Shown: positions 4,829 through 63,976 of the stretch, piece after piece | Numbering within the stretch: the first letter of the stretch is position 1 | How the letters are laid out: each line of letters starts with the position of its first letter | Source: Escherichia phage E26 | Sequence record: MN655998.1 | Reading direction: 5' to 3' (one strand) | Length of the DNA: 64,000 bases | Translations under genes and position numbers: made by a program | Notes under the pieces: model-generated | Told to the model about the DNA's origin: nothing | The model's input: the letters and a program-made list of their open reading frames with translations, nothing else | Databases searched by the model: none

Positions 4829-4858
4829 AATATAATCCTCTCGTTGTTAAGTGGGAGT

Positions 4859-4886
4859 ATTATAGCATACTCCCTTCGCATGTCAA
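4859..4886 (-). promoter_or_regulatory. sigma70-type early promoter, -10 inside a hairpin loop
   Basis: TTGACA (4881-4886) N16 TATAAT (4859-4864); GGGAGTA/TACTCCC stem encloses the -10. Confidence 0.6.
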
Positions 4887-6061: not shown

Positions 6062-6092
6062 AATATAATCCTCTAGTTGTTTAAATGGGAGT

Positions 6093-6121
6093 ATCTTACT
6101 ACTCCCGTTTCATCATGTCAA
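6093..6121 (-). promoter_or_regulatory. sigma70-type early promoter, -10 inside a hairpin loop
   Basis: TTGACA (6116-6121) N17 TAAGAT (6093-6098); GGGAGTA/TACTCCC stem around the -10. Confidence 0.6.
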
Positions 6122-6972: not shown

Positions 6973-7003
6973 TGTTGATTCTCCTTCTTGATTAGATGGG
7001 AGT

Positions 7004-7032
7004 ATTTTACTACTCCCATTTCATGCTGTCAA
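7004..7032 (-). promoter_or_regulatory. sigma70-type early promoter, -10 inside a hairpin loop
   Basis: TTGACA (7027-7032) N17 TAAAAT (7004-7009); GGGAGTA/TACTCCC stem. Confidence 0.6.
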
Positions 7033-25782: not shown

Positions 25783-25824
25783 TTTGATACTCCTTAGTAG
25801 TTCGTGTTTCGTTTCGATGGGTGT

Positions 25825-25853
25825 ATTATGCTATACACCCTCTCGTGTGTCAA
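25825..25853 (-). promoter_or_regulatory. sigma70-type early promoter (TTGACA-N17-CATAAT), -10 in hairpin
   Basis: -35 at 25848-25853, -10 at 25825-25830; GGGTGTA/TACACCC stem around -10. Confidence 0.6.
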
Positions 25854-28295: not shown

Positions 28296-28327
28296 TCTTG
28301 ATTCTCCTTTCGTTTGTTTGTGGGGGT

Positions 28328-28356
28328 ATCTTACTACCCCCGTTTCATGTTGTCAA
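28328..28356 (-). promoter_or_regulatory. sigma70-type early promoter, -10 inside a hairpin loop
   Basis: TTGACA (28351-28356) N17 TAAGAT (28328-28333); GGGGGTA/TACCCCC stem. Confidence 0.6.
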
Positions 28357-35943: not shown

Positions 35944-37844
35944 CAAAGCAAAAGATTACACAAATTCCTGATATTTTTAATGCTGCTACATTCGATGAAA
36001 TTAAAAGCGCATTAACAGACTGGATGAGAAACCAGGAAGAATTTAAAGATTTTGATTTTAATGGTGCTGGTATTAACGTATTGATGGACTTGCTCGCATA
36101 TAACACTCTGTATATTCAGCAATTCGCTAACGCCGCGCTATATGAATCTTTTATCAGAACGGCAATTAAGCGTAGTTCAGTTGTTCAAGCCGCGCAAGAT
36201 TTAGGATATTTGCCAGCAAGTAAAACTAGTGCATCGACTACAATTATGTTGCACGTAACACATCCGCGAAATCCGGCAAGTATTCGAATCCCACGAGGAA
36301 CTAAATTTATTGCAAGTGTGGATCGCCAGACGTCTTATCCGTTTGTGACTACCGAAGACGTTGTGAGCGTTTTAGGTTCAAATGGTTTATATACGCCTAT
36401 GCTTAAAGTCGCACAAGGTCGTATTGTTCGTACAGAAATGTTATTTGATCCGAAGAAACAAATTCTGATCCGCGATCCTGATATTGACCGCGCTCAGGTT
36501 AAATTGTGGGTAGACGGTGCTGAATGGAAAGACTGGACGCGAGAAAGCATTGTTAATGCAACTGGCGCTAGTAATATTTTCTATATGCGTGAAACCGTAG
36601 ACGGTCATACAGAAATCTTCTTTGGTGAGGGTGAATCAACTTTATCTGCTGCTGGCGGTGCACTGGAAGCAAATTATATTGGTGGACTTAAGCCGTCAAC
36701 TGGCGCTAATATTGTTATCGAATATATCAGCACTAAAGGCGCGGAAGCAAACGGTTCAGTTAATTTCACATACGCGGATACCCTTGCATCTATCTCTATT
36801 GTTAAAATTATTGAGAATCCGACAAATGATCGTGATTATGTCGGTGCGGATGGTGGTGGTGATCCTGAATCAATCGAACGTATCCGTGAACTTGCTCCGG
36901 TAATGCGTGAATCTCAGCGTCGTTGTGTAACTGCTTCCGACTATGAGGCTTTTGTGTCTAGCCGTTTTGGTAGTATTGTTCAGGCGGTACAATGTTTCAC
37001 CGACCGAGAAAAACCGGGTTATGCTTTTGTTGCTGTTAAGCCTAAATCTGGCTTGCGCTTGACAACCGTTCAAAAAGAAGATATGCGGGATTATCTGGCA
37101 AAATATAACCTTGCCCCTATCACGCCGAGCATCATTGACCCTAACTATCTGTATATTAAACAGAATATTAAAGTTTCCTATTCAATCAACGACTTGTCAG
37201 AATCAGAGCAGTGGTTGCGCGGTGCGGTTATTGATCAGATTGATGCATATTATACCGACGAAGTGGAAATTTTTAACCAGACCTTTAGTAAGTCTAAAAT
37301 GCTTGCGCGTATTGACAAAGCTGATGTATCTGTGATAGGTTCTAGTGCAGAAATCGAGATGGTGCGAGAGATCGACAACTTCTATAAAGCACCGATGGCT
37401 GGAATCAAGTTTTTAAACCAGTATAAGAGCGGAATCAAGTCTAGTTCATTCAACTTCGAAAAGGACGACAAGCAATATCCGATCCATTATGTAAGTACAG
37501 AAATGAACAAAGAATCCGGTTTAGCTAAATTGCTGGTTGGACCTTTCCCTGTTGATTCTACAATCGCTTTACCGCACTATTCCGGCACTGATTTTGATAA
37601 AGAGGTTATCGACGGTGCGGACCTATACTTTGAGGTTGGAGAGGTTAAGCATTATGACGACCTTATTTCATGGGATCTGGGTAAACTGAATATCAATAGC
37701 GATCGCTTTACTGGTTCATATATTGAGTTGACAGCTAAACCGATTGCTGATAACATCTTTACTAAAGACGGTTCTTTGATCGTGTTTGAAAACGATCTCC
37801 GTCCTCAGTACACAACTATTAGTCTGGAGGCAATTGCTCAATGA
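35940..37844 (+). CDS. 6: baseplate wedge protein gp6
   Basis: Synteny and size (634 aa vs about 660 in T4). Confidence 0.75.
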
Positions 37845-40800
37845 TTAAAGCGCCTAGTGTAACTAGCTTGACAATAGAAAAATTGTCTGCTAATCAGGCG
37901 TATATCACATGGGATGACGTAGGCGAAAACTTCTTTTATTTTGTGGAGTTAGCCGAAACCAGAACACGAGACGGGGAGATCATCCCCGTCGATGAGTTAA
38001 GCTGGGTAAACCTGGGATATACTGCCGAACAAAACTGGTTTGAGGATAAAAACCTTTTTCCAGAATATTATTACAAGTTTCGTGTAGCAGTAGCCGCAGA
38101 AGGATTTGAACAAAGTAAATGGGTTGAAACAGAAGAGTTTCAGACATTTAAAACAAACGCATATAATTTTTCTATGATGCGAGAGTTCAACCTTGCAAAT
38201 GAGTTTATAAAGGAAAAATTTACATACGATAATCGAGAGTATGTCAAGTTTAATACTGACCTGATTCAAGCATCATTGATGAAGGAAGATTTTGTCTTTA
38301 GTCCTGAATATGCAAACATGACAAATATCTCAAACTACATTGTAGTTGATGAGAACTTTCATGAAATACAGGATCACATAGAAAAAGTTTGTATTGATAT
38401 AAACCGCACTATGTTAGCGGAAATGAACGGTGTTTTGTACCTTTTCGAACGGTTCCAGCCGATCGTGAAAGTGTCAAATGATAAAGGTCAATCATGGAAA
38501 GCATACAAGGCTTTTAATGACCGTGTAGGCAATCCGGTTTCCCGTACATGCGTTTATCAGTCTAAAACAACTACTTACGTTTTAGGTTATGACCGAATCT
38601 TTTACGGACGACAAGCGAGCGATACTCGATGGAGCGCGGACGATGTTCGATTTAGTGATGATACGATCACTTTTGCAAAGGTTGGTGACGAGAACGATTT
38701 AGGGTTTGATGTTGAGGTATTTGGCGTATTTTCCCGATTAACAGGCGACACCACAAAATACGCCGAAGCGATGGCGTGTAGTGACGATTATTTGTGGGTT
38801 GGTGCTAAGGATGTTATTCGCAGGATTCGCCTTAAGAATACTCCGGTCGATACCGTACAGGGTTCGCCTACGTTTGGAGAAAAAATATTCGATCCTGATG
38901 TTATCAGAGTAACAGGAAATGATAAAGCTGTCATTCAGAAAATGGATGTGATCGACGGTAAATTGCTTGTATTTGTTACGGGTGAAGTTAAACAGCGTTA
39001 TCAAGATCCAACTAAACCAGAAAACGTTGTTCCGTCAGATGATGCGGGTGTATACTTAATAGGGAGTGATGGTCTGTCTTTTCAGAGAGTATTTGGCAAC
39101 ACTCCGCAGGAAAGGGAATATATTCAGCATGGGTTCAGTAATATGTCAACCAATGGTGATGAGGTGTTCATAAGCCATTATAATCATCACTTCGAAAGCA
39201 TTTTACCTGATCCAGAAACTGCCGCGAAATATGAATTAGGCGAAGCTGTGAAATATTCTCAGGAGCCAACTTATCTAACTGATAAGAAAATACATCAAAC
39301 TACTTTCAGAGCAAGTTATGATGATTTGCGTATTTGGGAGTTAGGACCGCAAGCGTATTATAATGAGGCTGATTATACATGGATGCGTCGAAACGGTGTC
39401 CGTGTGTGGATCACAAATGATAATCGCCCGTTGGTTGTTTATCCAGAGGTTATCTATACTCAAGAAGTTGATACGTCCGGCATTCTTGATCAAAATAGGG
39501 TCAACCGAGAAGTTTATGATAAAGGGACCGTGACCTGTTATCTTAACAATGTTAAATTTGAAGGATTCAAACAATATGCATCCGGTGTAATGTTCCATAA
39601 AAACACGGGAGAGATCATAGGATTCTATCAATTTAACTATCGCGTTCGTGATCAGGTTGGTGTATATTGGAAACCTACAAATGTAGCATTTGTTGCTGAA
39701 TTGCAAAATCAGGTTCGAGAGGTTCCCTGGGTTCCGGTTCACTACGATCGAGAGCAAGATCCAGATTTGCGACCTTTACTGAATAAGATGACACCTGATA
39801 GCTTTTTACTTGAGAACGAAAATTTCAGAAAATTCTCTGAATATTATCTGCAATTCTTAAGTGATGGTTCAGGAACATATTATAATAAACTAAAAAATCT
39901 GATTAAAAACAAATATCCACGCGAGCAAGATGCATATGAGTATCTTTGGTCAGAGATGAACAAACGAAACATCTATGCAGATAAAAACAAGCGAGATGCG
40001 GTAGTAAGATTCTTTGAATCCCGCAAATCAGATTTTTATTCCACTAAGGGCGTGGAGGCTTCTTATAAGTTCTTGTTTAAGTTACTTTATAATGAAGATG
40101 TGGAAATTGAGGTTGAATCACAAGCCGGACTAGAGTATGATATTGTTGTTAGTTCAACGAACATTGACGAGGATATCGTAGGTCGCACGATTTATACTCC
40201 AACCGGACGGGCTAACGTGACTTATCTTGAAAGGGAATATGAAGGTGGTCGCCTACGCTGGCGAGTAACCATTCATAACCTGATCGGGCGGTTCGAAGAA
40301 GGTCAAGTGATCAAATCAGAGAAAACAGCGTTTGAAGGGATGATCCTTGTTGGTGTACGTGGTAAAGAGTTGTTGAGTAGTTCAATCGACTATATCAACC
40401 GCTCACGAAGCCAATACACCATGAAGATTAAAAGTGCATTGCCAGTTTCTCGCTATGCAAATGATGTAATGCGATTCGTTCATCCTGTCGGCTTTGGGTT
40501 TATCGGTGTTACCCTGCTTACGATGTTCATTAACAGCGGGTTAAGCATGAAACACACAGAGACGATAATTCAATCTCTAAAAAATTATAAGTTTGACAGC
40601 GGATTGCCTAGCGTGTATCCTGATCGGGTGGCAGACCTTGACGTTGACGGAAACATTAAGAAAGACCCGCTTACCGGAAAAGCATTATATTTGACTTCAC
40701 CTTTAATTGGTGAAGAATTTCCGGTTCCCCCTGAATATGATCAGGAGAACAGCGAATTGTTCCACGGACTTAAAGCAAGCGAACGAAGATTTGCAATGAG

Positions 40801-40927
40801 TCCACTGTTTGACCAGTCGGCGGTAACATTCTCTATGTTCCGTGAACTTGTAGATAAACGGTTGAAGGATAATATAGGGAATCCACGCGATCCGAAGAAT
40901 CCGACACAGAGGAAAATTAATGGCTAA
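37841..40927 (+). CDS. 7: baseplate wedge initiator gp7
   Basis: Synteny and size (1028 aa vs about 1032 in T4). Confidence 0.8.
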   Translation: MIKAPSVTSLTIEKLSANQAYITWDDVGENFFYFVELAETRTRDGEIIPVDELSWVNLGYTAEQNWFEDKNLFPEYYYKFRVAVAAEGFEQSKWVETEEFQTFKTNAYNFSMMREFNLANEFIKEKFTYDNREYVKFNTDLIQASLMKEDFVFSPEYANMTNISNYIVVDENFHEIQDHIEKVCIDINRTMLAEMNGVLYLFERFQPIVKVSNDKGQSWKAYKAFNDRVGNPVSRTCVYQSKTTTYVLGYDRIFYGRQASDTRWSADDVRFSDDTITFAKVGDENDLGFDVEVFGVFSRLTGDTTKYAEAMACSDDYLWVGAKDVIRRIRLKNTPVDTVQGSPTFGEKIFDPDVIRVTGNDKAVIQKMDVIDGKLLVFVTGEVKQRYQDPTKPENVVPSDDAGVYLIGSDGLSFQRVFGNTPQEREYIQHGFSNMSTNGDEVFISHYNHHFESILPDPETAAKYELGEAVKYSQEPTYLTDKKIHQTTFRASYDDLRIWELGPQAYYNEADYTWMRRNGVRVWITNDNRPLVVYPEVIYTQEVDTSGILDQNRVNREVYDKGTVTCYLNNVKFEGFKQYASGVMFHKNTGEIIGFYQFNYRVRDQVGVYWKPTNVAFVAELQNQVREVPWVPVHYDREQDPDLRPLLNKMTPDSFLLENENFRKFSEYYLQFLSDGSGTYYNKLKNLIKNKYPREQDAYEYLWSEMNKRNIYADKNKRDAVVRFFESRKSDFYSTKGVEASYKFLFKLLYNEDVEIEVESQAGLEYDIVVSSTNIDEDIVGRTIYTPTGRANVTYLEREYEGGRLRWRVTIHNLIGRFEEGQVIKSEKTAFEGMILVGVRGKELLSSSIDYINRSRSQYTMKIKSALPVSRYANDVMRFVHPVGFGFIGVTLLTMFINSGLSMKHTETIIQSLKNYKFDSGLPSVYPDRVADLDVDGNIKKDPLTGKALYLTSPLIGEEFPVPPEYDQENSELFHGLKASERRFAMSPLFDQSAVTFSMFRELVDKRLKDNIGNPRDPKNPTQRKING

Positions 40928-46826: not shown

Positions 46827-48227
46827 ATGGCAAACAATACTATTAACCATGTAAAAGACGATGCTCAATACGTCAAGTTTAACCCTGTAAATGATTGGCC
46901 TCAAAGCATTACCAACGTACAAGCGGCTTTAGCCGCTATTAATGGCTTTGCCGTAAATGGATTACCGGACGCTACGGAAGATACAGCCGGGATCGCTGCA
47001 ATCGCAACTCAGGAAGAAGTAAACGACGGGACAGTAGACAATAAGATCGTGACTCCAAAAACACTGGCTGTTAAAATGTCACGTCCAGATGCCACAAAAG
47101 AAGTAAAAGGCATTACCCGATTTGCCACGATGGAAGAATCGCTGCAAGAGAGCAACGAGAACATAGCAATCGGTCCAGACACACTAAACCATTACTTCAC
47201 CACTAAAAAGGCGTCAGAGAGCGTTCAGGGGACTATTAAGATATGTTCTCTTGAGGCGGCAAAGATTGGCAGTGATGACACAATGGCAGTAACACCGAAA
47301 AAGATGCACACTGCCATTGCACAGATTGTACCTGGATTAATTCCAGATCAAAACACAGCAACCGAAAGCGCACAGGGTTTAGTTCAGTTAGCAACCAATG
47401 CGCAAGTTTTACAAGGCCAGATTCGAGAAGGTTTTGCAATTAGTCCTTATGCATTTGCAAATGCTCGCGCCAATGAGAATCAGGCGGGTACTGTTAAGAT
47501 CGCCAGTCAGTCACAGATGAATGCTGGTTCAGATGATACTGTAGTTGTTTCTGCTAAGAAGTTTGCAAGCACTAAGGCAACAACGTCTCAATACGGTATT
47601 GTTAAACTACGAGACACCGTGGGAAGTGAGGCTAACGCTGCACTATCAGCAAATGCTAAGGTTCTTCCTAGCACTGGCGGTACGGTAAGCGGAAACGTCT
47701 ATAAAGGTTCAAACTCAGACGGCAACCAGTTTGTTACTAAAAATGAATTAGCGAATCACGCAATGCCAATTGGTGGTATTATCCTTTCTGGATTCAATGC
47801 CGATCGAGGTGACTTTCTGATCTGTAATGGTCGTTCGCTGAATAAAAATCAATATCCGCAATTATTTTCTGCGATTGGTTATACCTTTGGTGGTTCAGGT
47901 GACAATTTTAACATTCCTGATATGCGCGGTTTAGTTGCTCGTGGTTGCGATCATGGAAGAAACCTTGATCCAGGTCGTCGATTTGGTTCTTATCAAGAAG
48001 ACGCAATGCAGAGAATTACTGGTAAATTCCCTGTAGCTGACCGCTGGCGCGGTTGGTATGGTGGAGCATTTACTGCACAGCGCGGTCAATGGAGCACGAA
48101 CTATAAAAACGGTGGTGGTGATGATTGGGGTACTACTGTTAACTTTGACTCAGGAAGATCCGTAAGAACGGCTAACGAGACTCGCGTCAAGAGTCTGGCA
48201 TTAAACTATATCATAAGGGTGCGCTAA
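46827..48227 (+). CDS. 12: short tail fiber gp12
   Basis: Repeated (Q/K)GxVx(L/I)A(T/S)xxE/Q motifs in N-terminal half typical of gp12; synteny. Confidence 0.75.
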   Translation: MANNTINHVKDDAQYVKFNPVNDWPQSITNVQAALAAINGFAVNGLPDATEDTAGIAAIATQEEVNDGTVDNKIVTPKTLAVKMSRPDATKEVKGITRFATMEESLQESNENIAIGPDTLNHYFTTKKASESVQGTIKICSLEAAKIGSDDTMAVTPKKMHTAIAQIVPGLIPDQNTATESAQGLVQLATNAQVLQGQIREGFAISPYAFANARANENQAGTVKIASQSQMNAGSDDTVVVSAKKFASTKATTSQYGIVKLRDTVGSEANAALSANAKVLPSTGGTVSGNVYKGSNSDGNQFVTKNELANHAMPIGGIILSGFNADRGDFLICNGRSLNKNQYPQLFSAIGYTFGGSGDNFNIPDMRGLVARGCDHGRNLDPGRRFGSYQEDAMQRITGKFPVADRWRGWYGGAFTAQRGQWSTNYKNGGGDDWGTTVNFDSGRSVRTANETRVKSLALNYIIRVR

Positions 48228-49996
48228 TGATTGAACAATTAAACATCCACGAGATCCCACATGTTGACGGTGTACCAAGCGAAGGACAGCACCGTATTAA
48301 CTGGATCAAGAATGGCGAATGTTTAAGCGCAGCAACGACACAGACTGGCAATGACGGGACGCTTAACCGCGCCCCTGTTGCAATTCAAGAAAACGTTGCA
48401 CGCGTAAACGAAAACGCAAAATCAACCGTCGCTAAAGTTAACGAGGTTGTAACGGCGGTTAACGATATTAAAACAACTTTAGGGGTAATTTCTGACGGAA
48501 GTATCATTGATGTGGTTAACCAGACTGTCGCAAAAGTTGAATCCGTCGAAGAGAACTTAGGAGAAACAGCAAGAACTCTGCAAACAACGGTAGACGCTGT
48601 GTCAGAACTTAACATCAAGATTGGTGATCGCCCCGCTGCCGATCCGAGCACAAGAACAATCTATGATGACATTTCTTTCATCAAACAAGAAATGGGTTCT
48701 TATCCTAACTTTAATATCAATGGTTCCCCTGATGCTGGCAGTTCCGGTTCTGGCATCAAATACCGAGTTATTCAGAATACCGCAGCATTAAATGACCACG
48801 GTCGCCGAATCGTTCAGCTTGAAAACGACTGGCAAGATTCTGACGTAGGCGAGTTAACAAGACAAGTTAACAAAATGCGCAGTGAGATCGGAGACACGTC
48901 TCTTGCCACACAAGAAAATGTGTATGTTCGTCTCCGCACCAACGCAAGAAACATTGCTAACTTATCAAACGAAGTTCTAGAAGTCAAGAAAGCAATTTTG
49001 TTTGATTCAATCCCTGATATCGGGACTAAAGTCACTACGCTGGGAACTAATTATGAACGTCTAAACAATGATGTTAATGGTGTAGATTCCGGTATTCGTC
49101 CTCGTCTTCTGGCTGTCGAGAATAAGATCGGAACGCCTCAATCGGCTGGAAGCATTGATTATCGATTAACCAACACAGAGCGAGAATTTTTAGATCTTAA
49201 ACAGGTTGTTGGTGTAAGCGGTGCTGACGGTTTGCGCGGTGAAGTTGTTCGACTTTCCAATGAGATTGGCACTGACAGCGATCGACATACTCTAGCCGGA
49301 CGTATTAAAGTTGTAGAAAACACTCAGGGTCGGTTAGAAGCAAGCGTACAGGACATGGAACAGATTGTAGGTGATCGCGAATCAGGTTTGACCGCTGGCG
49401 TTATTAAACTATCAAGTGATATCTATGGCGATGATGGTTCAGAAGATCCATTTACTCAGAAAGGCGTGATTAAAATCGTCAAAGAGCTACAAACATCTAA
49501 CGGAAACAAAGTAGATGATGTACCTGATGACGGTTTTCATTATCTGCGTAAGCACGGCGAATGGGTGCAAGTTGCATATGCTGCTGGAGCATTTAAAAAT
49601 ACCGCAGATATTACGGTTGAACTTGACGAACAGGATGTTTATAAACCGATTCCGCTAAACGATATGACCGAAGAAGTTCCTGCGCGTGGAATGGTTAAGA
49701 GCGAATCTCTTGTTACGGTTAACGACAAAGGCTTATTCCGTTGTGATTTCCGTTGTTCTGTAAATGCGGCACATAACGCTACTTTCGTAGTCGGTATTGC
49801 TAAAAATGGTCTGATTGTACATGAGGTACGAAATGGTCATTATGGAGCTGATGATTTAATTAGCTATTCTACCAGTGCTTTCCTAAATATTGAAAAGGGC
49901 GACCGGATCGATATTCGCATTAAGGGCGTATCCGAAGAAGCATTAGCGCAACAGCTACAAATTAAAGAGTTCCTCTTTGGGATTTCTCCGGTATAA
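48227..49996 (+). CDS. wac: fibritin (whisker) Wac
   Basis: 589 aa, long coiled-coil-like repeats, between gene 12 and gene 13. Confidence 0.7.
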   Translation: MIEQLNIHEIPHVDGVPSEGQHRINWIKNGECLSAATTQTGNDGTLNRAPVAIQENVARVNENAKSTVAKVNEVVTAVNDIKTTLGVISDGSIIDVVNQTVAKVESVEENLGETARTLQTTVDAVSELNIKIGDRPAADPSTRTIYDDISFIKQEMGSYPNFNINGSPDAGSSGSGIKYRVIQNTAALNDHGRRIVQLENDWQDSDVGELTRQVNKMRSEIGDTSLATQENVYVRLRTNARNIANLSNEVLEVKKAILFDSIPDIGTKVTTLGTNYERLNNDVNGVDSGIRPRLLAVENKIGTPQSAGSIDYRLTNTEREFLDLKQVVGVSGADGLRGEVVRLSNEIGTDSDRHTLAGRIKVVENTQGRLEASVQDMEQIVGDRESGLTAGVIKLSSDIYGDDGSEDPFTQKGVIKIVKELQTSNGNKVDDVPDDGFHYLRKHGEWVQVAYAAGAFKNTADITVELDEQDVYKPIPLNDMTEEVPARGMVKSESLVTVNDKGLFRCDFRCSVNAAHNATFVVGIAKNGLIVHEVRNGHYGADDLISYSTSAFLNIEKGDRIDIRIKGVSEEALAQQLQIKEFLFGISPV

Positions 49997-50004
49997 GAAA
50001 TTAA

Positions 50005-50026
50005 AGGGGCGTTAAGCCCCTTTTTC
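50005..50026 (+). terminator. rho-independent terminator after wac
   Basis: Hairpin AGGGGC-GTTA-AGCCCCT followed by TTTTT. Confidence 0.7.
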
Positions 50027-50042
50027 GTTTATAGGTGATATT

Positions 50043-50975
50043 ATGTCAGGATATGTAACCAATAACCCAAGAGAATTAAAAGACGCTATTCTGCGTCGTT
50101 TAGGCGCACCAGTAATTAACGTAGAAGTAACAGAAGACCAGATTTACGATTGTATTCAGAGAGCATTAGAACTCTATGGGGAATATCATTTCGATGGTGT
50201 GAATAAAGGATATAAAGTATTTCGTGTCAGTGCAGAGCAAGCGCAACATGGGGTATTTGATTTAAGCGATTCTGGAGTATTCGCAGTAACTAAAATAATT
50301 AGAACAAACGTAGGTAGCGCGGCTACGATGGATGGCACTGCCGTTTATCCGTGGTTTACTGACTTTCTGTTGGGTTTAGCGGGTGTAAATGGCGGTTTAG
50401 GATCTGGCTGTAGTAAATTTTATGGACCAAATGCAATGGGCGGTGATCTGGGATATTTCGAACAGCTTATGAGCTATCGAGCCACTATGCAAAATATGCT
50501 TAATCCGCTGCCAGATTATTGGTATAATAGCGCAAACGGACAACTTAAGATCACAGGAAACTTCCGAGAAGGCGATCTCATTGTTGTTGAATTGTATGTT
50601 AAAAGTTATGTTGATGTACCGGACATGATGGGGGCGGTTGCTGGTTATGCTCATGCGGGAGGATGTTCTACCGCTGGCGGGATTAGCGCCGTTTATGATA
50701 ATCCAACCGCCGGATTGAGCGGTATTGTTGCTGGCATGGGTCCGATCAGCGAGAACAAACAGGGCGCATATAATAACCGCTGGGTTAAAGACTGCGCGAC
50801 CGCGTTTACTCGTGAGCTATGGGGGCAGATCTTAGCTAAACATCAAGGGTTGCAATTACCAGGTGGTGTAACAGTTGATGGTGTCAGAATCATCGAAGAA
50901 GCACGCGCGGATATTGAGAAATTACGACAAGAATTGGAATTACTAGACCCACCGTTTGGGATCATTATGGTTTAA
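50043..50975 (+). CDS. 13: neck protein gp13
   Basis: Synteny and size (310 aa vs 309 in T4). Confidence 0.8.
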
Positions 50976-51036: not shown

Positions 51037-51933
51037 ATGAATCATTATGTGTATAAAATAACCAACAAATTAAATGGTAAAATCTATATCGGCGTCCGTA
51101 GCTGTGATTGCGATATCGACAAAGATCCTTATATGGGTAGTGGGGTATTAATTAAAAAAGCTATCCATACTCATGGAGTTGAAAATTTTCACAAAGAAAT
51201 TCTCGAAACATTTGAAACAAGAGAAGAAGCTAATCAAGAAGAAGCCAGATTAGTGACACTAGATTTTGTTAACCGACAAGACACATACAATCTAATTGAA
51301 GGTGGTCTGGGTGGTTGCTACTGGAATACATTTTCAGAAGAAAAAAAGGAAGAGATCAAGAACAAATTAAGACAACATAAACCAGATCCAGAACAATTAA
51401 GAAAATTACATGAATCAAATAGAGGCGTTCCGCGTTCGGAAGAGACTAAATTGAAAGTTAGCCGAGCAAATAAAGGAAGAATCCACACGGAGCAGTCAAG
51501 AAAAAACATGTCCGAAGGGCGAAAAGGTATGGTGTTTTCAGAAGAACACAGAAAAAATATATCAAAAGCAAATGTAGGACGTGTACATTCTCCAGAAACA
51601 TTGGAAAAAATAAGATTAGGGAATTTAGGAAAAAAATTAAAACCAGAAACAATAGAAAAACTAAGAGAGGTTGCCAAGAATCGTCCTCCTGTCTCAGAAG
51701 AAACAAGAAGAAAACTATCAGAGGCAGCAAAGAAACAAATAAGAAACTTCGGGGATAAAATAAGTAAAGGGAAAATAGATAAACCTATATCAACGAGCAA
51801 AACAGTGTATGCGGAAGGTGTTGAATATCCTTCTGTTAGTGTTTGTGCAAGGGCATATGGGATTTCAAACACATCAATATTGAAGAGAATTAATTCAACG
51901 TCAGAAAAATGGAAGGAGTTTTATTATGTTTGA
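51037..51933 (+). CDS. GIY-YIG homing endonuclease (Seg-like) with tandem NUMOD3-type repeats
   Basis: N-terminus [17 protein letters not shown] is a GIY-YIG motif; repeated ExxKxKxS/R units; ATG at 51037 with AGGAG RBS. Confidence 0.8.
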
Positions 51934-52666
51934 TAATACCCTATTTGCTCGCCTTGAATCGCAAAAGGATTATGAGAATACACGACAATCAGAGATTCTT
52001 AATCCTTATGTGAACTTTCACAAATATACAAATACTCAGACGTTAGCCGACGTTATGGTCGCCGAAGCTATTCAGATGCGAGGTGTAGAATTATATTACA
52101 TCCCTCGTGAATTTGTCAAACCAGACATGATCTTTGGCGAGGATGTTCAAAGCAAATTTACTAAAGCATGGAAATTTGCTGCTTATATTAACTCATTTGA
52201 TGGGTATGAAGGCGCGGGTAATTTCTTCTCTAGTTTCGGTTATCAAGCCAATGATGAACTAACTTTTACGGTTAATCCTAACCTATTCAAACATCAAGTA
52301 GATGATCAAGAGCCAAAATCAGGTGACTTGATTTATATTCCAATGAGTAATGATTTATTTGAAATCAATTACGTCGAGCCATATCAGCCGTTTTTTCAGG
52401 CTGGCAAAAATGCCATGCGTAAAATTATTGCAGAGAAATTCGTATATAGCGGCGAGGAATTGCGACCAGAATTACAACGCAATGAGGGAATTAATGTTGA
52501 TGAGTTTGCGGATCTGGATCTTGCACCGATCACTAATCTGGACGGGTTAACAGATATCAACTTAGATCAGTACAAAGAAGATAAGCAATTCAGAAGCGAA
52601 GGACAAGATTTTATTGATCCGTTTGATCCTATTAATGGCAAGGGTTCACCTTTCGCCGATTTTTGA
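51926..52666 (+). CDS. 14: neck protein gp14
   Basis: Synteny and size (246 aa). Confidence 0.75.
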
Positions 52667-52692
52667 TAAATACTCATAAACAAGGGGGTCAA

Positions 52693-53526
52693 ATGTTCGG
52701 TTGGCACTATAATTCGTCAATTAGAAGGTATATTGTATTGCTGGGTAATTTATTCTCCGGCGTACAAATTAAAAGGGTGCGTAGTGACGGTGAGCGGTTT
52801 ATTAAAGTTCCTATCACCTACGCAAAGAAAGAAAAATTCATGATGAGTCTGGACAAATATAACAATATCTCAAGCGAGGAAGACGTAGCAAAGGTAGAAA
52901 CTATTTTACCGCGTATGTGTCTTTCTTTGATTGATATGACATACGCCCAGAACTTTAAAACAAATATTGCAAATAAGACAGTACCAAAATATACGGCTGA
53001 TGGAATCAGGAGCGTAACACAATATAATCCTGTACCATATAAGTTTACTTTCGAGTTAGGGATTTATACGCGTAACGAAGATGATATGTTTCAGATAATT
53101 GAACAGATTCTTCCTTACTTCCAGCCTCATTTTAACTGCAAGATTAAAGAACTACACGGTAATGATGTATGGATTGACCGAGATATTCAGGTCACAATTA
53201 GTTCTATTACTCCAGATGAACAGGTAGGCGAAGATAAGTTTTCTCGTCGTCGTCTTGAGTGGACCATTATGTTCGAATTTATCGGGTTTATATATCCTCC
53301 AGCTACCGACGTTAAGGGGGAAATTAGAACGATTTATCTTGATTTTCATGCCAATTCTCGTGAATTGAATCCTAGCGGTAATTTTGAATCAGTGGACCAC
53401 GAGGTCGTTAAACGTGACGTCGAGCAAGAAGATTGGGACGGAACAATCAAAGAATCATATTCTAGTGATATTCCAATACCAGTTGCACCAACTCCACCGG
53501 GTCCACGTATTGTAAGAGAATTTTAA
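52693..53526 (+). CDS. 15: tail sheath stabilizer / tail terminator gp15
   Basis: N-terminus MFGWHYNSSIRRY and internal motifs match T4 gp15 as recalled; ATG at 52693 with AGGGGG RBS (track start is TTG at 52663). Confidence 0.85.
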   Translation: MFGWHYNSSIRRYIVLLGNLFSGVQIKRVRSDGERFIKVPITYAKKEKFMMSLDKYNNISSEEDVAKVETILPRMCLSLIDMTYAQNFKTNIANKTVPKYTADGIRSVTQYNPVPYKFTFELGIYTRNEDDMFQIIEQILPYFQPHFNCKIKELHGNDVWIDRDIQVTISSITPDEQVGEDKFSRRRLEWTIMFEFIGFIYPPATDVKGEIRTIYLDFHANSRELNPSGNFESVDHEVVKRDVEQEDWDGTIKESYSSDIPIPVAPTPPGPRIVREF

Positions 53527-53539
53527 GAGGTATTTTATT

Positions 53540-55860
<2,321 letters not shown>

Positions 55861-55891
55861 CGATAATGCATAAAAAGATGAGGAAATTCTA

Positions 55892-57892
55892 ATGACTCTA
55901 TTATCACCGGGTTTCGAAACGAAAGAAACTACTCTCTCCACTACCATTGTGCAATCTGCGACTGGTCGCGCGGCACTGGTGGGTAAATTCCAATGGGGTC
56001 CAGCTTTCCAGATTATTCAAGTAACTAATGAAGTTGAATTAGTTAATAAATTTGGTCAGCCGGATAATAACACCGCAGACTATTTCATGAGCGGGGCTAA
56101 CTTCCTCCAGTACGGTAATGATCTGCGTGTTGTTCGTGTACTCAATAAAGAAAAAGCAAAAAACGCAACTGCCCTAGCTGGTAACGTCGAGTTTGAAATC
56201 ACAAACGAAGGTTCAAACTATGAAGTAGGCGATACTATCAAGATTAAACATAACCGTCAAGATATTGAAACGGCGGGTAAAGTAACTAAAGTTGATGGTG
56301 ATGGTAAAGTTAAGGGCGTATTTATCCCAACTGGTAAAATTATCGCTCACGCTAAAGCAATCGGTGTATATCCAGAACTCGATGGCGGTTGGACGGCAGA
56401 GTTCACTTCTTCGTCAGGTAACGGTAGTGCGGCGCTGTCAGTAACTAAAATTGTCACTGATTCCGGTCTTCTGTTAACGGATCTGGAAACTTCCCGCGCC
56501 AATATCACAAATCAAACTTTCTTGACTAAACTCAAGAAATATGATATGCCAGCGGTAAGCGCGATCTATGCTGGTGAGATTGGAAACTCGCTGGAAGTTG
56601 AAATTCTGGCGCGTAGTGCGTTTAAGAACACTGCACCGGATCTGACCATGTATCCTTATGGTGGCGAGCGCACCGCAGCACGCAACCTGATTCCATATGC
56701 ACCGCAGAATGATAATCAATATGCGTTTATTGTTCGTCGTGATGGTGTTGTGGTAGAATCCTATGTACTGTCTACTCTGAAAGGGGATAAAGACGTATAC
56801 GGCAATTCTATCTATATGGACGACTTCTTTGCTCGTGGTTCTAGCCAGTACATCTATGCAACCGCTCAAGGGTGGGTAGATGGTTTCAGTGGTATTATCT
56901 CTCTTGCTGGTGGTGTTTCTGCTAACGAAGCAACGACTGCTGGTGTTGGTGCTGATCCGTTCATCGGTGCGATGATGCAAGGATGGGATCTGTTTGCTGA
57001 ACGTGAATCTATTCACGTAAACCTGTTGATTGCTGGTGCATGTGCTGGCGAAGGCGATGCGTTCTCTACCGTACAGAAACATGCTGTTTCCATCGGTGAT
57101 GAGCGTCAGGATTGCTTAGTAATGGTTTCTCCGCCGCGTAGCACTGTTGTTAATATTCCGGTGACTACTGCAATTGATAACCTGATTGCATGGCGCGAAG
57201 GTTCAGGAAACTATAATGAAAACAACATGAACATTAATACCACTTACGCGGTTATTGATGGTAACTACAAATATCAGTATGACAAATACAACGACGTAAA
57301 CCGTTGGGTTCCGTTGGCTGCTGATATTGCTGGTTTGTGCGCTCGTACTGATGCTGTATCCCAGCCGTGGATGAGTCCGGCAGGTTATAACCGTGGTCAG
57401 ATCATGAACGTGGTTAAACTGGCAATTGAGCCTCGCAAGGCGCACCGCGATCGTCTGTATCAGGCCGCAATTAACCCGGTGATCGGTGCTGGTGGTGAAG
57501 GGTTTATCCTGATGGGTGATAAAACCGCTACGACTGTTCCCAGCCCGTTTGACCGCATTAACGTTCGTCGTCTGTTTAACATGCTGAAAAAGAATATCGG
57601 CGATTCAAGCAAATACAAACTGTTTGAAAACAACGATAACTTTACTCGCGCTTCCTTCCGTATGGAGGTTTCGCAATATCTCAGCACGATTCGCTCTCTG
57701 GGTGGAATTTATGACTTCCGAGTACAATGCGACACCACGAATAACACGCCGGATGTAATTGATCGTAACGAATTTGTTGCTAGTATGTTCATCAAACCAG
57801 CAAAATCGATCAACTATATCATGCTCAATTTCACTGCTGTTGCAACTGGTTCTGATTTTGACGAAATTATCGGTCCAGCTAACCAGGCATAA
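55892..57892 (+). CDS. 18: tail sheath protein gp18
   Basis: 666 aa, synteny and size match T4 gp18. Confidence 0.93.
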   Translation: MTLLSPGFETKETTLSTTIVQSATGRAALVGKFQWGPAFQIIQVTNEVELVNKFGQPDNNTADYFMSGANFLQYGNDLRVVRVLNKEKAKNATALAGNVEFEITNEGSNYEVGDTIKIKHNRQDIETAGKVTKVDGDGKVKGVFIPTGKIIAHAKAIGVYPELDGGWTAEFTSSSGNGSAALSVTKIVTDSGLLLTDLETSRANITNQTFLTKLKKYDMPAVSAIYAGEIGNSLEVEILARSAFKNTAPDLTMYPYGGERTAARNLIPYAPQNDNQYAFIVRRDGVVVESYVLSTLKGDKDVYGNSIYMDDFFARGSSQYIYATAQGWVDGFSGIISLAGGVSANEATTAGVGADPFIGAMMQGWDLFAERESIHVNLLIAGACAGEGDAFSTVQKHAVSIGDERQDCLVMVSPPRSTVVNIPVTTAIDNLIAWREGSGNYNENNMNINTTYAVIDGNYKYQYDKYNDVNRWVPLAADIAGLCARTDAVSQPWMSPAGYNRGQIMNVVKLAIEPRKAHRDRLYQAAINPVIGAGGEGFILMGDKTATTVPSPFDRINVRRLFNMLKKNIGDSSKYKLFENNDNFTRASFRMEVSQYLSTIRSLGGIYDFRVQCDTTNNTPDVIDRNEFVASMFIKPAKSINYIMLNFTAVATGSDFDEIIGPANQA

Positions 57893-57926
57893 TCAGTAAA
57901 TTAGCATAGATTAAAAGTTAAATCAA

Positions 57927-57945
57927 GCGGGGAGAAAATCCCCGC
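57927..57945 (+). other. conserved intergenic stem-loop (GCGGGGA-loop-TCCCCGC) after gene 18
   Basis: 7-bp GC-rich stem with 5-nt loop; same stem repeats after gene 19. Confidence 0.55.
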
Positions 57946-57965
57946 TCTATTAAGGAATATCAATT

Positions 57966-58460
57966 ATGGCACTCGATTTGAATGATATTACACGCGGTTT
58001 CGAGTCTGGCGATTTTGCTCGTCCTAACCTGTTTGAAGTTGAGATCCCGTATCTGGGGCAAAACTTTAAGCTGATGTGTAAGGCTGCGACTGTCCCGGCT
58101 GCTACCGTAGAAAAAATTGCTATAGGCTATCAAAACCGTAAAATTAACATCGCTGGCGACCGTGTATACGACGACTGGACCATCACTGTATTCAACGATG
58201 ACGCACACAAGATCCGTGATGCTATCGTTGCATGGAGCGATCAGACACACGGCACTGGTTCGGCGATCACTGGTGCAACTCCTGCACAATATAAGAAACA
58301 AGCTATTGTTCGTCAACTTAACCGTAACACCGAATCAACTAGCGAAAAAACATTGTACGGTATTTTCCCTACCAACGTTGGTGAAGTAACCCTCGATTGG
58401 GAACAAAACAACGAAGTTGAAACGTTTGAAGTTACTTTTGCTATCGATTGGGTAGAATAA
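57966..58460 (+). CDS. 19: tail tube protein gp19
   Basis: 164 aa, directly after sheath gene. Confidence 0.9.
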   Translation: MALDLNDITRGFESGDFARPNLFEVEIPYLGQNFKLMCKAATVPAATVEKIAIGYQNRKINIAGDRVYDDWTITVFNDDAHKIRDAIVAWSDQTHGTGSAITGATPAQYKKQAIVRQLNRNTESTSEKTLYGIFPTNVGEVTLDWEQNNEVETFEVTFAIDWVE

Positions 58461-58472
58461 ATATATTATCAT

Positions 58473-58491
58473 GCGGGGAGAAGTTCCCCGC
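58473..58491 (+). other. conserved intergenic stem-loop (GCGGGGA-loop-TCCCCGC) after gene 19
   Basis: Same 7-bp stem as 57927..57945. Confidence 0.55.
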
Positions 58492-58518
58492 CTAATTTCT
58501 CCCAATTCGAGGTGAATA

Positions 58519-60084
58519 ATGTTTAGTAGATTAAAAATGCTTGCGCGTTGGGCTGATTTTGACAACGACAAATACGAAGAACAAATTAAAGATAAAGCAG
58601 AGTCTATCGCCGCACCTAAAAACAATGATGGTGCTACGGAAGTAGAAATTAACGATAATTCACCTGCTAGCTCGTGGAACTCTCTTACCCAGCAATTTTA
58701 CAGCACAGACCAGAAAATCAGCACAACTAAGCAATTAGTTAACACATATCGCGGTTTGATGAATAACCATGAAGTCGAAAACGCTGTACAAAATATCGTT
58801 AACGATGCGATTGTATTTGAAGAAGGTCATGAAGTTGTTTCATTAAATCTTGAGGCGACTGGCTTTAGTGAATCTGTAAAAGAGCGCATTCATGAAGAAT
58901 TTAAAGATCTTTTAAACACTATCCAGTTTGATAGGCGCGGTCAGGATATGTTCCGCCGCTGGTATGTCGATTCGCGTATTTTCTTCCATAAAATCATCGG
59001 CAAAAATCCAAAAGATGGTATCGTAGAATTACGCCAGCTTGATCCACGAAATCTTGAATATGTTCGCGAGATCATTACAGAAGACACACCGGAAGGTAAA
59101 ATTTATAAAGCAACGAAAGAATATTTCATTTACACTGTAGGCAATAGCTCTTATTGCGCAGGTGGTCAAGTATTCTCTCCTAACAGTCGCGTTAAAATCC
59201 CGCGTAGTGCTATTACATACGCTCACAGCGGCTTGATGGATTGCGATGATAAATATATCATTGGTTATTTGCATCGGGCGGTTAAGCCAGCAAACCAGCT
59301 TAAATTGTTGGAAGACGCAATGGTCGTTTATCGTATCACGCGTGCACCGGAACGCCGAGTGTTCTTTATTGATACCGGAAACATGAACAACCGCAAGGCT
59401 GCACAGCACATGAACTCAGTGGCACAGTCTTTTAAAAACCGCGTTGTTTATGATGCATCGACTGGTAAACTTAAAAACCAGCAAGCAAATCTATCAATGA
59501 CAGAGGACTACTGGTTACAGCGTCGAGATGGTAAAGCAATCACCGACGTTACTACTTTACCTGGTGCATCCGGTATGAGTGATATCGATGATATTCGCTA
59601 CTTTAACCGTAAGTTGTATGAAGCGTTGCGTGTGCCATTGTCACGTAGTAATCTCTCCGATGCTAATATGGTGATCGGTGGTGACGGTTCAGAAATTACT
59701 CGCGATGAGTTGGAATTTTCGAAATTCATTAGAACTCTGCAATCACAGTTTTCGGAAGTATTGCGCGATCCTCTGAAATATAATCTGATTCTCAAAAATG
59801 TAATTACGGAAGACGATTGGGATCGTGAAATAAATAATATCAAGGTGGTTTTCCATCGGGACTCTTACTATACAGAAGTTAAAGACGCGGAAATTTTAGA
59901 ACGTCGAATCGGTCTAATCGAACGTATTACACCTTACATTGGTAAATATTTCTCTAACCAGACAGTGATGCGTGACATTCTGAAATATACCGATGACCAG
60001 ATGGACACCGAGAAGAAACAGATCGAAGAAGAAGCGAACGATCCGCGCTTTAAACAAACTCCCGATGAAATAGAGGATTTTTAA
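58519..60084 (+). CDS. 20: portal vertex protein gp20
   Basis: 521 aa, synteny and size match T4 gp20. Confidence 0.93.
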   Translation: MFSRLKMLARWADFDNDKYEEQIKDKAESIAAPKNNDGATEVEINDNSPASSWNSLTQQFYSTDQKISTTKQLVNTYRGLMNNHEVENAVQNIVNDAIVFEEGHEVVSLNLEATGFSESVKERIHEEFKDLLNTIQFDRRGQDMFRRWYVDSRIFFHKIIGKNPKDGIVELRQLDPRNLEYVREIITEDTPEGKIYKATKEYFIYTVGNSSYCAGGQVFSPNSRVKIPRSAITYAHSGLMDCDDKYIIGYLHRAVKPANQLKLLEDAMVVYRITRAPERRVFFIDTGNMNNRKAAQHMNSVAQSFKNRVVYDASTGKLKNQQANLSMTEDYWLQRRDGKAITDVTTLPGASGMSDIDDIRYFNRKLYEALRVPLSRSNLSDANMVIGGDGSEITRDELEFSKFIRTLQSQFSEVLRDPLKYNLILKNVITEDDWDREINNIKVVFHRDSYYTEVKDAEILERRIGLIERITPYIGKYFSNQTVMRDILKYTDDQMDTEKKQIEEEANDPRFKQTPDEIEDF

Positions 60085-62339: not shown

Positions 62340-63926
62340 ATGAAAACTACCAAAGAACTGATGGAAAAATGGTCCCCGCTGCTGGAAAACGAAAAACTGC
62401 CGGAAATCGCAACTGCGTCTAAGCAGAAACTGGTTGCTAAAATTCTGGAATCTCAGGAAGCGGACTTTGCTGTAGACCCGATCTATAAGGATGAAAAAGT
62501 TGTTGAAGCATTCGGTGGCTTTATCGCAGAAGCCGAAGTTGCTGGCGACCACGGTTATGACGCATCTAATATCGCGGCTGGTCAGACTACCGGTGCAATC
62601 ACCAACGTAGGTCCGGCTGTTATCGGTATGGTTCGCCGTGCTATCCCTAACCTGATCGCATTTGATATTTGTGGTGTTCAGCCGATGAGCACTCCGACTA
62701 GCCAGATCTTTGCAATCCGTTCTGTATACGGTGGCGACCCGCTGAAATCCGGTGCTCGCGAAGCATTCCATCCGATGTATGCACCTGATGCGTTCCATAG
62801 CTCTCTTGCTGCTAAAGAGGCAACTGTAGGTTCACCAACTGGTACTGCATTCGCTAAACTAACTCTTTCCCAGGCTATCGCTGCTGGTGATATCGTATAT
62901 CACACCTTCGCAGAAACTGGTATTGCTTATCTGCAAAACGTAACTGGTGATTCTGTAACACCACAGAAAGTAGGTAGCGAATCCGAAGATGAAGTAGTAA
63001 TGAAGCTGATTGAAGAAGGTAAATTGGCTGAAATCGCTTTCGGTATGGCTACTTCCATTGCCGAAATTCAGGAAGGCTTTAACGGTTCCAGCAATAACCC
63101 GTGGGCTGAAATGTCAATGCGTATTGACAAACAGGTTGTTGAAGCGAAATCTCGCCAACTGAAAGCCCGTTATTCTATCGAAGTTGCGCAGGATCTGCGT
63201 GCTGTACACGGTATGGATGCTGATGCCGAACTGAATGCTATCCTGGCTAACGAAGTTCTGCTGGAAATCAACCGTGAAATCGTTGACGTTATCAACTTTA
63301 CCGCTCAGGTTGGTAAAACTGGTATGACTCAGACCGTTGGTTCTAAAGCTGGTGTATTTGACCTGCAAGACCCGATCGATACTCGCGGTGCTCGTTGGGC
63401 TGGTGAATCCTTCAAATCTCTGATCTACCAGATCGACAAAGAAGCTGCTGAAATCGCTCGTCAGACTGGTCGCGGTGCTGGTAACTTTGTTATCGCTTCC
63501 CGTAACGTTGTAAACATTCTGGCTTCTGCTGATCAGGGTATCAGTCTTGCTATGCAGGGTGCTGCAAAAGGTCTGAATACCGACACCACTAAAGCTGTTT
63601 TCGCTGGTGTTCTGGCTGGTAAGTACAAAGTATTCATCGACCAGTATGCTCGTCAGGACTACTTCACCGTAGGTTACAAAGGCGACAACGAAATGGATGC
63701 TGGTATCTACTATGCTCCGTATGTTGCTCTGACTCCGCTGCGTGCAACTGATCCGCAGTCTTTCCACCCGGTTCTGGGCTTCAAGACTCGCTACGGCATC
63801 GGTATTAACCCGTTTGCAGACAGCAAATCCCAGGCACCGTCCGCTCGCATCACCTCCGGTATGTTGAGCAAAGACAGCGTAGGTAAAAACGCATACTTCC
63901 GTCGTGTATGGGTTAAAGGTTGCTAA
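62340..63926 (+). CDS. 23: major capsid protein gp23
   Basis: 528 aa; long identical stretches to T4 gp23 as recalled (GPAVxGMVRRAIPNLIAFDICGVQPM, MDAGIYYAPYVALTPLR). Confidence 0.96.
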   Translation: MKTTKELMEKWSPLLENEKLPEIATASKQKLVAKILESQEADFAVDPIYKDEKVVEAFGGFIAEAEVAGDHGYDASNIAAGQTTGAITNVGPAVIGMVRRAIPNLIAFDICGVQPMSTPTSQIFAIRSVYGGDPLKSGAREAFHPMYAPDAFHSSLAAKEATVGSPTGTAFAKLTLSQAIAAGDIVYHTFAETGIAYLQNVTGDSVTPQKVGSESEDEVVMKLIEEGKLAEIAFGMATSIAEIQEGFNGSSNNPWAEMSMRIDKQVVEAKSRQLKARYSIEVAQDLRAVHGMDADAELNAILANEVLLEINREIVDVINFTAQVGKTGMTQTVGSKAGVFDLQDPIDTRGARWAGESFKSLIYQIDKEAAEIARQTGRGAGNFVIASRNVVNILASADQGISLAMQGAAKGLNTDTTKAVFAGVLAGKYKVFIDQYARQDYFTVGYKGDNEMDAGIYYAPYVALTPLRATDPQSFHPVLGFKTRYGIGINPFADSKSQAPSARITSGMLSKDSVGKNAYFRRVWVKGC

Positions 63927-63951
63927 TATAAGCCATTCCTGAAAACTCCTG

Positions 63952-63976
63952 TCGGGTGCAATGCCCGACTTATCAT
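63952..63976 (+). terminator. rho-independent terminator after gene 23
   Basis: Hairpin GTCGGG-TGCAATG-CCCGAC followed by T-rich tract. Confidence 0.6.

Follow-up and report, generated by a model that had tools for sequence, protein, structure and literature searches.

Paired hairpins flanking the tail tube gene of Krischvirus phages, candidate leaky 3'-end signals of late transcripts

Gene 19, the tail tube gene of Escherichia phage E26, is flanked by two hairpins that have the same 7-bp stem. The pair is present throughout Krischvirus, and stable hairpins occupy the same two positions in related T4-type genera, where they bear the signatures of sense-strand RNA. Neither hairpin of the pair has a canonical U-tract, and both belong to a stretch served by one canonical late promoter, located before gene 18. 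The best explanation, with a probability of roughly 0.6, is that they are leaky 3'-end-forming hairpins (partial terminators and/or exonuclease barriers) that favour the sheath and tube message over the portal message, and that their stems were copied or converted from one another. What these observations suggest is leaky termination, stabilisation of the upstream message, and a resulting effect on stoichiometry.

The hairpin pair and its transcription unit

The window is the whole stretch of DNA that was analysed, 64,000 nt of record MN655998.1. It belongs to Krischvirus, the RB49/phi1/JSE group of T4-type phages, with an identity of 99.5% to Escherichia phage JEP8 and of 95-99% to about 50 further members of the genus. 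Its + strand holds the late structural block. All large ORFs over 32710 to 64000 are on this strand, and no - strand genes are found near the hairpins. Gene positions were taken from ORFs, and gene names from near-identical annotated Krischvirus records. The features of the region are as follows.

54034-55857, + strand: gene 17 (ORF, name from near-identical records)
55853-55860, + strand: late promoter TATAAATA before gene 18, an exact consensus match
55892-57892, + strand: gene 18, tail sheath, 666 aa (ORF; annotated as tail sheath in Krischvirus records 98-99.5% identical)
57926-57946, + strand: hairpin 1, A-GCGGGGA / GAAAA / TCCCCGC-T, 8 bp, with its 7-bp core at 57927-57945 (GCGGGGAGAAAATCCCCGC)
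57966-58460, + strand: gene 19, tail tube, 164 aa (ORF; tblastn finds 2056 phage records annotated as tail tube)
58456-58463, + strand: variant late-promoter-like motif AATAAATA, function uncertain, which overlaps the stop codon of gene 19 and lies 9 nt ahead of hairpin 2
58473-58491, + strand: hairpin 2, GCGGGGA / GAAGT / TCCCCGC, 7 bp (GCGGGGAGAAGTTCCCCGC), with tail CTAATTTCT
58519-60084, + strand: gene 20, portal protein, 521 aa (ORF; portal in the annotation of close relatives)
after gene 20, + strand: genes 67, 68, 21, and 22, in this order (ORFs, names from near-identical records)
62340-63926, + strand: gene 23, major capsid protein (ORF, name from near-identical records)

Further upstream, the ORFs of genes 14 and 15 overlap (51926-52666 and 52663-53526). 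A homing endonuclease gene lies between these two genes in phage FL20 (PP400781, locus L001, 8046-8801) and is absent from the window.

The hairpins described in the earlier note at 57927-57945 and 58473-58491 are exact in sequence and are located in intergenic gaps of 73 nt (gene 18|19) and 58 nt (gene 19|20). Hairpin 1 begins 35 nt past the gene 18 stop and ends about 4 nt ahead of AAGGA, the Shine-Dalgarno sequence of gene 19; hairpin 2 begins 12 nt past the gene 19 stop. They share 17 of 19 nt, and their flanking sequences are unrelated. Predicted RNA folding energies are -16.2 kcal/mol for hairpin 1 (z = -4.5) and -13.7 kcal/mol for hairpin 2 (z = -3.1), and each folds about equally well on either strand.

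The search for other copies of the stem that the note had proposed returned these two only, both in the window and in Krischvirus contigs of 164.7 kb and 150 kb. Within the 64 kb, the pattern GCGGGG-N3-12-CCCCGC occurs at 2 sites, the two gene 19 hairpins, where shuffled sequences give an expectation of 0.00. With 2 mismatches allowed, one extra site is found at 37971, inside a coding region. This near-copy (37971-37989, ACGGGGAGATCATCCCCGT) lies about 130 nt into a 1028-aa ORF (37841-40927), and its likeness to the gene 19 hairpins is probably coincidental. In an exact-pattern scan of IMG/VR, paired copies 546 nt apart were found only in the two Krischvirus contigs, which are complete or near-complete and hold no further copies. 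The other 31 matches are each single-copy, on other contigs. A dispersed or wider repeat family was rejected, since the matches elsewhere in IMG/VR are single and blastn finds both intergenic regions in Krischvirus alone. Rfam 15 covariance models run over 55700-58700 gave one match, at chance level (rli48, E = 0.88, 22 bits against a gathering score of 100 bits).

The late promoter at 55853 corresponds to the predicted RB49 late promoter Pl:86777 (offset 30950, derived from the coordinates of the RB49 19-->20 terminator), and the transcription unit that it starts includes both hairpins. A motif scan finds no canonical late promoter between 55853 and 61446, the promoter before gene 22, and the published RB49 list likewise goes straight from P18 to P22 (Nolan 2006). 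The 18|19 gap of the window has no 8-mer within 2 mismatches of TATAAATA. On the + strand between 55853 and 61446, WATAAATA occurs only as AATAAATA at 58456 and once within gene 20, at 59829. Genes 19, 20, 67, 68, and 21 thus have no canonical promoter of their own, and read-through is needed if genes 19-21 are to be expressed. Neither hairpin can then be an efficient terminator, and both must be leaky.

The stem-loops themselves are those of an intrinsic terminator (stem of about 5-14 bp, loop of 3-8 nt), with 7-8 bp, 6 G-C pairs, 5-nt loops, and a location after gene stops. The U-run of such terminators (about 5-6 U or more in 8 nt) is lacking in both. The tail of hairpin 1, TCTATTAA, has T at 4 of 8 positions after the 7-bp stem and 3 of 8 after the 8-bp stem. 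That of hairpin 2, CTAATTTC, also has 4 of 8, rising to 5 of 8 where an isolate carries T at 58492; in several isolates the tail reads TTAATTTCT. The note's remark that strong U-tracts are lacking is therefore correct, each hairpin having 4 T in 8 nt. A simple, lenient terminator scan calls hairpin 2 on the + strand, as does TransTerm; hairpin 1 passes neither on that strand and is terminator-like in the simple scan on the - strand only (tail GATTTAACTT).

The window also contains a canonical intrinsic terminator, in contrast to which the gene 19 hairpins are U-poor.

50003-50023: canonical intrinsic terminator AAAGGGGC-GTTAA-GCCCCTTT followed by TTCG, between the 589-aa ORF 48227-49996 (wac position) and the gene at 50043

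This wac|13 terminator has a T run after its stem. The tail is GCCCC then TTTTTCGT (T at 7 of 8), or GCCCCTTT/TTCGTTTA (6 of 8) when the longer stem is called. Near the end of the window, a hairpin GTCGGG-TGCAATG-CCCGAC (63951-63969) is found 25 nt past the gene 23 stop and has a weak T tail, TTATCATA. A stronger RB49 terminator, '23-->ORF162w', would fall just past the window end. In the literature, no mapping of transcript 3' ends or terminators was found for Krischvirus or any T4-type phage. The T4 late-transcription review has nothing on terminators, and the T4 RefSeq record has no regulatory features for the 18-19-20 region.

Conservation and variation

Both intergenic regions were found by blastn in 58 of 58 Krischvirus records and in no other genus. 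The 18|19 region is at least 99% identical in 42 of the 58 records, the 19|20 region in 46. No Krischvirus copy read departs from either 7-bp stem, but the loops are variable.

Hairpin 1 loop GAAAA: the window, RB49, SFHK24, JEP8, and phiS
Hairpin 1 loop GAAA (a tetraloop): G2248
Hairpin 1 loop GAAGT: MIZ3, pEJ01, and JK32
Hairpin 2 loop GAAGT: most Krischvirus copies read
Hairpin 2 loop TTAT: JK32

A fixed stem with a free loop argues for a structural hairpin and against loop-specific recognition. Over 93 nt, MIZ3 differs from the window only by an AA-to-GT change in the loop of hairpin 1, which makes it an exact copy of hairpin 2. The change looks like a templated event, e.g., gene conversion, and not like two separate point mutations. 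Two independent 7-bp stems would match by chance with a probability of 4^-7, or at most about 1% if only G and C were used, and the identity of the stems thus points to a common origin of the two hairpins. The earlier note had seen the repeated stem as a deliberate feature. This view fits poorly with the unrelated stems of other genera and with Krischvirus loops that drift and are sometimes homogenised. Copying or gene conversion appears to explain the identical stems, which are specific to Krischvirus, better than design does.

An insertion is observed in phage phiS (PP449093, locus L139, 294-988), where a 199-aa ORF lies between gene 18 and hairpin 1. Its product belongs to phrog_5104, of unknown function, and has only weak zinc-ribbon matches in Pfam. 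The insert carries its own hairpin, GGGGGAG-GTCAA-CTCCCCC, directly after gene 18, and each cistron keeps a downstream hairpin.

For the wider family, 16 annotated phages of other genera supplied the 18-19-20 region, as did IMG/VR loci identified by a gp19 alignment search. In the 29 loci whose gp19 has 45% identity or more, a hairpin of -8 kcal/mol or better is present in 86% of the 18|19 gaps and in 86% of the 19|20 gaps. The median energies in these loci are -14.3 kcal/mol for 18|19 and -12.9 kcal/mol for 19|20; coding-sequence control windows, pooled over all loci, have a median of -5.1 kcal/mol, and 26% of them reach -8 kcal/mol. The pattern is not seen in 71 distant cyanophage-like loci with gaps of about 35 nt (0% and 25%). 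Stems at the two positions are unrelated between genera. The conservation in relatives that the note looked for thus holds for a stable hairpin at both positions, and the identity of the two stems is specific to Krischvirus.

Several signatures indicate that these hairpins are sense-strand RNA elements of late transcripts. GNRA or UUCG tetraloops are found on the sense strand in 17 of 21 cases and on the antisense strand in 0; the asymmetry is large, even though the folding program gives such loops a slight reward and the loci lack independence. Nine hairpins share the core of the T4 19|20 hairpin, AUGGGGA-GAAA-UCCCCAU. Each of the 9 sequences keeps all 7 pairs; compensatory, two-sided changes are seen at 4 positions, and G-U wobbles occur from position 7 onward. 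These pairs were counted on a loop-anchored hand alignment, because MAFFT misplaced gaps in such short hairpins, and the anchoring leans toward structure. The UUCG hairpin of the 18|19 gap is closed by a U-G pair in T4 and by a U-A pair in phage AugustSocin. The energies of the best + strand and best - strand hairpin per gap do not differ significantly (27 vs 18, p = 0.09). A test of each hairpin against its own reverse complement (35 vs 2, p = 5e-7) was biased by selection on the + strand, and folding-energy asymmetry was dropped as evidence.

U-tracts are almost absent from the relatives. At least 5 T in 8 nt follow 0 of 22 unique 18|19 hairpins and 2 of 22 unique 19|20 hairpins, and efficient intrinsic termination is therefore unlikely to be the conserved role.

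The hairpins of other genera are arranged around late promoters. Of 22 unique 18|19 gaps, 12 have a late-promoter motif ((T/A/C)ATAAATA or CTAAATA) that starts no more than 2 nt from the 3' end of the hairpin. In loci L011-L021 and L060-L064, the last base of the stem in this gap is often the first T of TATAAATA, a layout that constitutes a conserved cassette of hairpin and late promoter. Before gene 19, Tevenvirinae have a tandem pair of these cassettes. In the 19|20 gaps, the promoter is located 0-8 nt before the hairpin, within its loop (Acinetobacter phages), or after it. Acj9, LemonAid, and an IMG/VR relative (L019, L023, and L005) have a 13-15 bp hairpin with TATAAATA in the loop of the 19|20 hairpin, and in Slopekvirus, Pseudotevenvirus, and Biquartavirus the 19|20 promoter ends 0-1 nt ahead of the hairpin. 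An RNA started at such a promoter would lack the 5' arm, and only read-through RNA would fold. In most layouts the full hairpin would thus be found only in RNA read through from upstream, so its conserved role seems to be in making or protecting the upstream 3' end. In these relatives, the 3' end of the upstream message would be formed or protected at the hairpin, with re-initiation alongside. Krischvirus departs from most genera in having no late promoter before gene 19.

Possible modes of action

Hairpins 1 and 2 are the form taken in Krischvirus by the very stable intercistronic hairpins that follow genes 18 and 19 across Straboviridae. They are expected to fold in the sense-strand late mRNA begun at the TATAAATA promoter before gene 18, and to define the 3' end of the message for gene 18 and of that for genes 18-19. 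A fraction of RNA polymerases may terminate at each, and hairpin 2, with its semi-U-rich tail CTAATTTCT, is the better attenuator candidate of the two. The hairpins may also block 3'-to-5' exonucleases after the downstream RNA is cut. Either way, the sheath and tube message would be more abundant or longer-lived than the downstream message for the portal and prohead core, and read-through would supply genes 19 to 21, for which Krischvirus lacks the neighbouring late promoters. One hairpin was probably copied to the other site, with occasional gene conversion afterwards; their identity would not be required for function. The earlier note had proposed an RNA element that acts as a partial terminator or processing site. 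The proposal of an RNA element is supported, in that the hairpins are selected sense-strand elements at cistron ends, and a partial terminator, processing, or stability site is the most reasonable function.

T4 virions have 138 copies of the tube protein and 12 of the portal protein, and gp18 and gp19 are needed in equal copy number. The demand for message should thus fall where hairpin 2 is located, between the 138-copy tube and the 12-copy portal. Since gp18 and gp19 are equal in T4, attenuation at hairpin 1 is not obviously useful, and hairpin 1, between equally abundant proteins, is more easily read as a 3' exonuclease barrier. The role in setting the stoichiometry of sheath, tube, and portal messages that the note had suggested would follow from such action.

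Hairpin 2 could instead serve mainly to stabilise the 5' end of a separate gene 20 message, one started from the variant promoter AATAAATA. The hairpin would then lie about 3-5 nt from the 5' end and guard against 5'-end-dependent decay. Within Krischvirus, neither the motif nor its 9-nt distance from hairpin 2 varies, RB49 late promoters commonly have A or T at -13 (Nolan 2006, PMC1524935), and a CUUCGG hairpin at the 5' end reportedly stabilises the gene 32 mRNA of T4 (as summarised in PMC8948821). This role is nonetheless unlikely. The AATAAATA site is not among the 17 RB49 late promoters predicted by Nolan's model, and RNA started from the corresponding promoters of Slopekvirus, Pseudotevenvirus, Biquartavirus, and the Acinetobacter phages would miss the 5' arm. 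The other late promoters of the window (55853, 61446, and 62299) have no hairpin directly downstream, and hairpin 1 would be left unexplained. It is a little harder still to see the hairpins as DNA-level module junctions or recombination sites, similar to the PeSL stem-loops of RB49, that favour insertion, exchange, or excision of genes and have a secondary role in RNA. PeSL stem-loops mediate shuffling in RB49 and phi1 (PMC2839356), the phiS ORF was inserted between gene 18 and hairpin 1 together with its own hairpin, and the exact copy of hairpin 2 at the hairpin 1 site of MIZ3, pEJ01, and JK32 suggests DNA exchange. Only 19 bp are shared, however, a sigma-70 promoter is lacking, as is the roughly 100 bp of flanking homology seen in PeSLs, and recombination between the copies would remove the essential gene 19. 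The region is a conserved structural core and not a hyperplastic one, and the sense-only GNRA/UUCG loops and the G-U wobbles point to selection on RNA.

The identity of the stems could also be tied to a factor acting in trans. Recurrent gene conversion might keep them identical for one trans-acting reader, either an RNA-binding protein or a nuclease of phage or host, with the gene 19 mRNA as a discrete stabilised unit that in Krischvirus alone replaces the hairpin-plus-promoter cassettes of other T4 relatives, which is considered very unlikely. A related proposal, less probable again, is that the shared stem is the site of one sequence-specific binding or cleaving factor, such as a phage RNA-binding protein or an endoribonuclease (e.g., RegB at the GGAG in GGGGAGAA), that excises or regulates the gene 19 mRNA as a unit. 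Gene 19 does have the same stem at either end, with no variation in Krischvirus, and the 19|20 hairpins of T4, Mosigvirus, and Moonvirus again contain GGAGAA. Against such a factor, the loops vary freely, the TTAT loop of hairpin 2 in JK32 removes the GGAG, and other genera have unrelated stems at both sites. A RegB target in particular was rejected, given the variable loop and a review in which secondary structure protects RNA and all late transcripts are resistant (PMC3014915). There is equally little to be expected of bidirectional terminators that chiefly stop antisense ('anti-late') transcription into the late region. The hairpins fold about equally on either strand and the simple scan calls hairpin 1 on the - strand, but the T-tract on that strand (GATTTAACTT) is marginal, the special tetraloops of relatives are sense-only, and around the hairpins, as over all large ORFs from 32710 to 64000, genes are on the + strand.

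If the hairpins are leaky 3'-end signals, they would give a T4-type phage one way of setting different levels for the message of its abundant tail proteins and for that of its 12-copy portal from a single late promoter. This reading would be useful for annotating or engineering Krischvirus therapy phages, although the principles are well known. The family-wide GNRA/UUCG hairpins, which have no U-tract and usually lie outside the RNAs initiated at late promoters, may merit a short systematic description.

Comparison with known systems

Intercistronic stabilising hairpins set differential operon expression at the malE-malF REP of E. coli and in the puf operon of Rhodobacter. The gene 19 hairpins resemble these in being stable stem-loops without a U-tract downstream of the higher-expressed cistron, with a proposed rise of the upstream message. 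There is no sequence relationship, and REP is a multi-copy family.

The hairpins are already known as predicted terminators and are not a new kind of element. Hairpin 2 is the RB49 TransTerm terminator '19-->20' (89423-89441, 19 nt, 7 bp, score 100; Nolan et al. 2006, Virol J 3:30, Additional file 6), a list in which the 18|19 hairpin is not called. GenBank MK327932 (vB_EcoM_G2248) has both hairpins as 'putative transcriptional terminator', with -14.2 and -13.7 kcal/mol, and the records of Makalu_001 and Makalu_003 have one hairpin annotated. The Nolan 2006 and MK327932 entries describe the same element, as software predictions, and these sources on the RB49 and MK327932 terminators make no mention of the identity of the two stems. 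What is mildly new is limited to the evidence that the two copies undergo conversion and to the way hairpins and late promoters are arranged across the family.

The PeSL (promoter-early stem-loop) cassettes of RB49 and phi1 are made up of polyG/polyC stem-loops, proposed to be terminators or attenuators (Arbiol et al. 2010, PMC2839356). In one such cassette, the stem-loop lowered the expression of a downstream lacZ to a similar extent as the rrnB T1 terminator (PMC2839356), which indicates that such non-canonical-looking hairpins can act strongly in vivo. The gene 19 hairpins are likewise polyG/polyC stem-loops in intergenic gaps of the same phage group. PeSLs differ in that they carry a strong early promoter of the sigma-70 type, that their similarity extends over about 100 bp, and that many copies lie in hyperplastic early regions, whereas the gene 19 hairpins share 19 nt, occur as two copies per genome, and are located in the late structural core. 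PeSL identity was rejected on these grounds; neither hairpin has a good + strand -35/-10 pair, the best being 9/12 at 58438-58467. Elsewhere in the window, a family of - strand stem-loops, GGGAGTA..TACTCCC or GGGGGTA..TACCCCC, is embedded in sigma-70 promoters and matches the published RB49/phi1 PeSL cassettes. Its members are found at 4853-4874, 6087-6106, 6996-7019, 20473-20492, 25819-25840, and 28322-28341. The first of them has TTGACA-17 nt-TATAAT on the - strand, and its -10 box falls within the loop and 3' arm.

The closest comparison is with T4 itself, whose extra-stable intergenic UUCG/GNRA hairpins were described as a class by Tuerk et al. 1988 (as summarised in PMC8948821). T4 has GGCCUGU-UUCG-GCAGGCC after gene 18 and AUGGGGA-GAAA-UCCCCAU after gene 19, at the same positions in the same gene order. 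Unlike Krischvirus, it has different stems at the two sites, two late promoters before gene 19, and one before gene 20. The T4 and Krischvirus hairpins are alike in being GC-rich and without a U-tract, and the core of the T4 19|20 hairpin, GGGGA-GAAA-UCCCC, is common to the Krischvirus hairpins and exact in hairpin 1 of G2248. The window hairpins share the intergenic, sense-strand position, conserved among relatives, of the T4 class, but have the pentaloops GAAAA and GAAGU in place of a UUCG or GNRA tetraloop. By this comparison, the window copies look like slightly degenerate derivatives of T4-type tetraloop hairpins.
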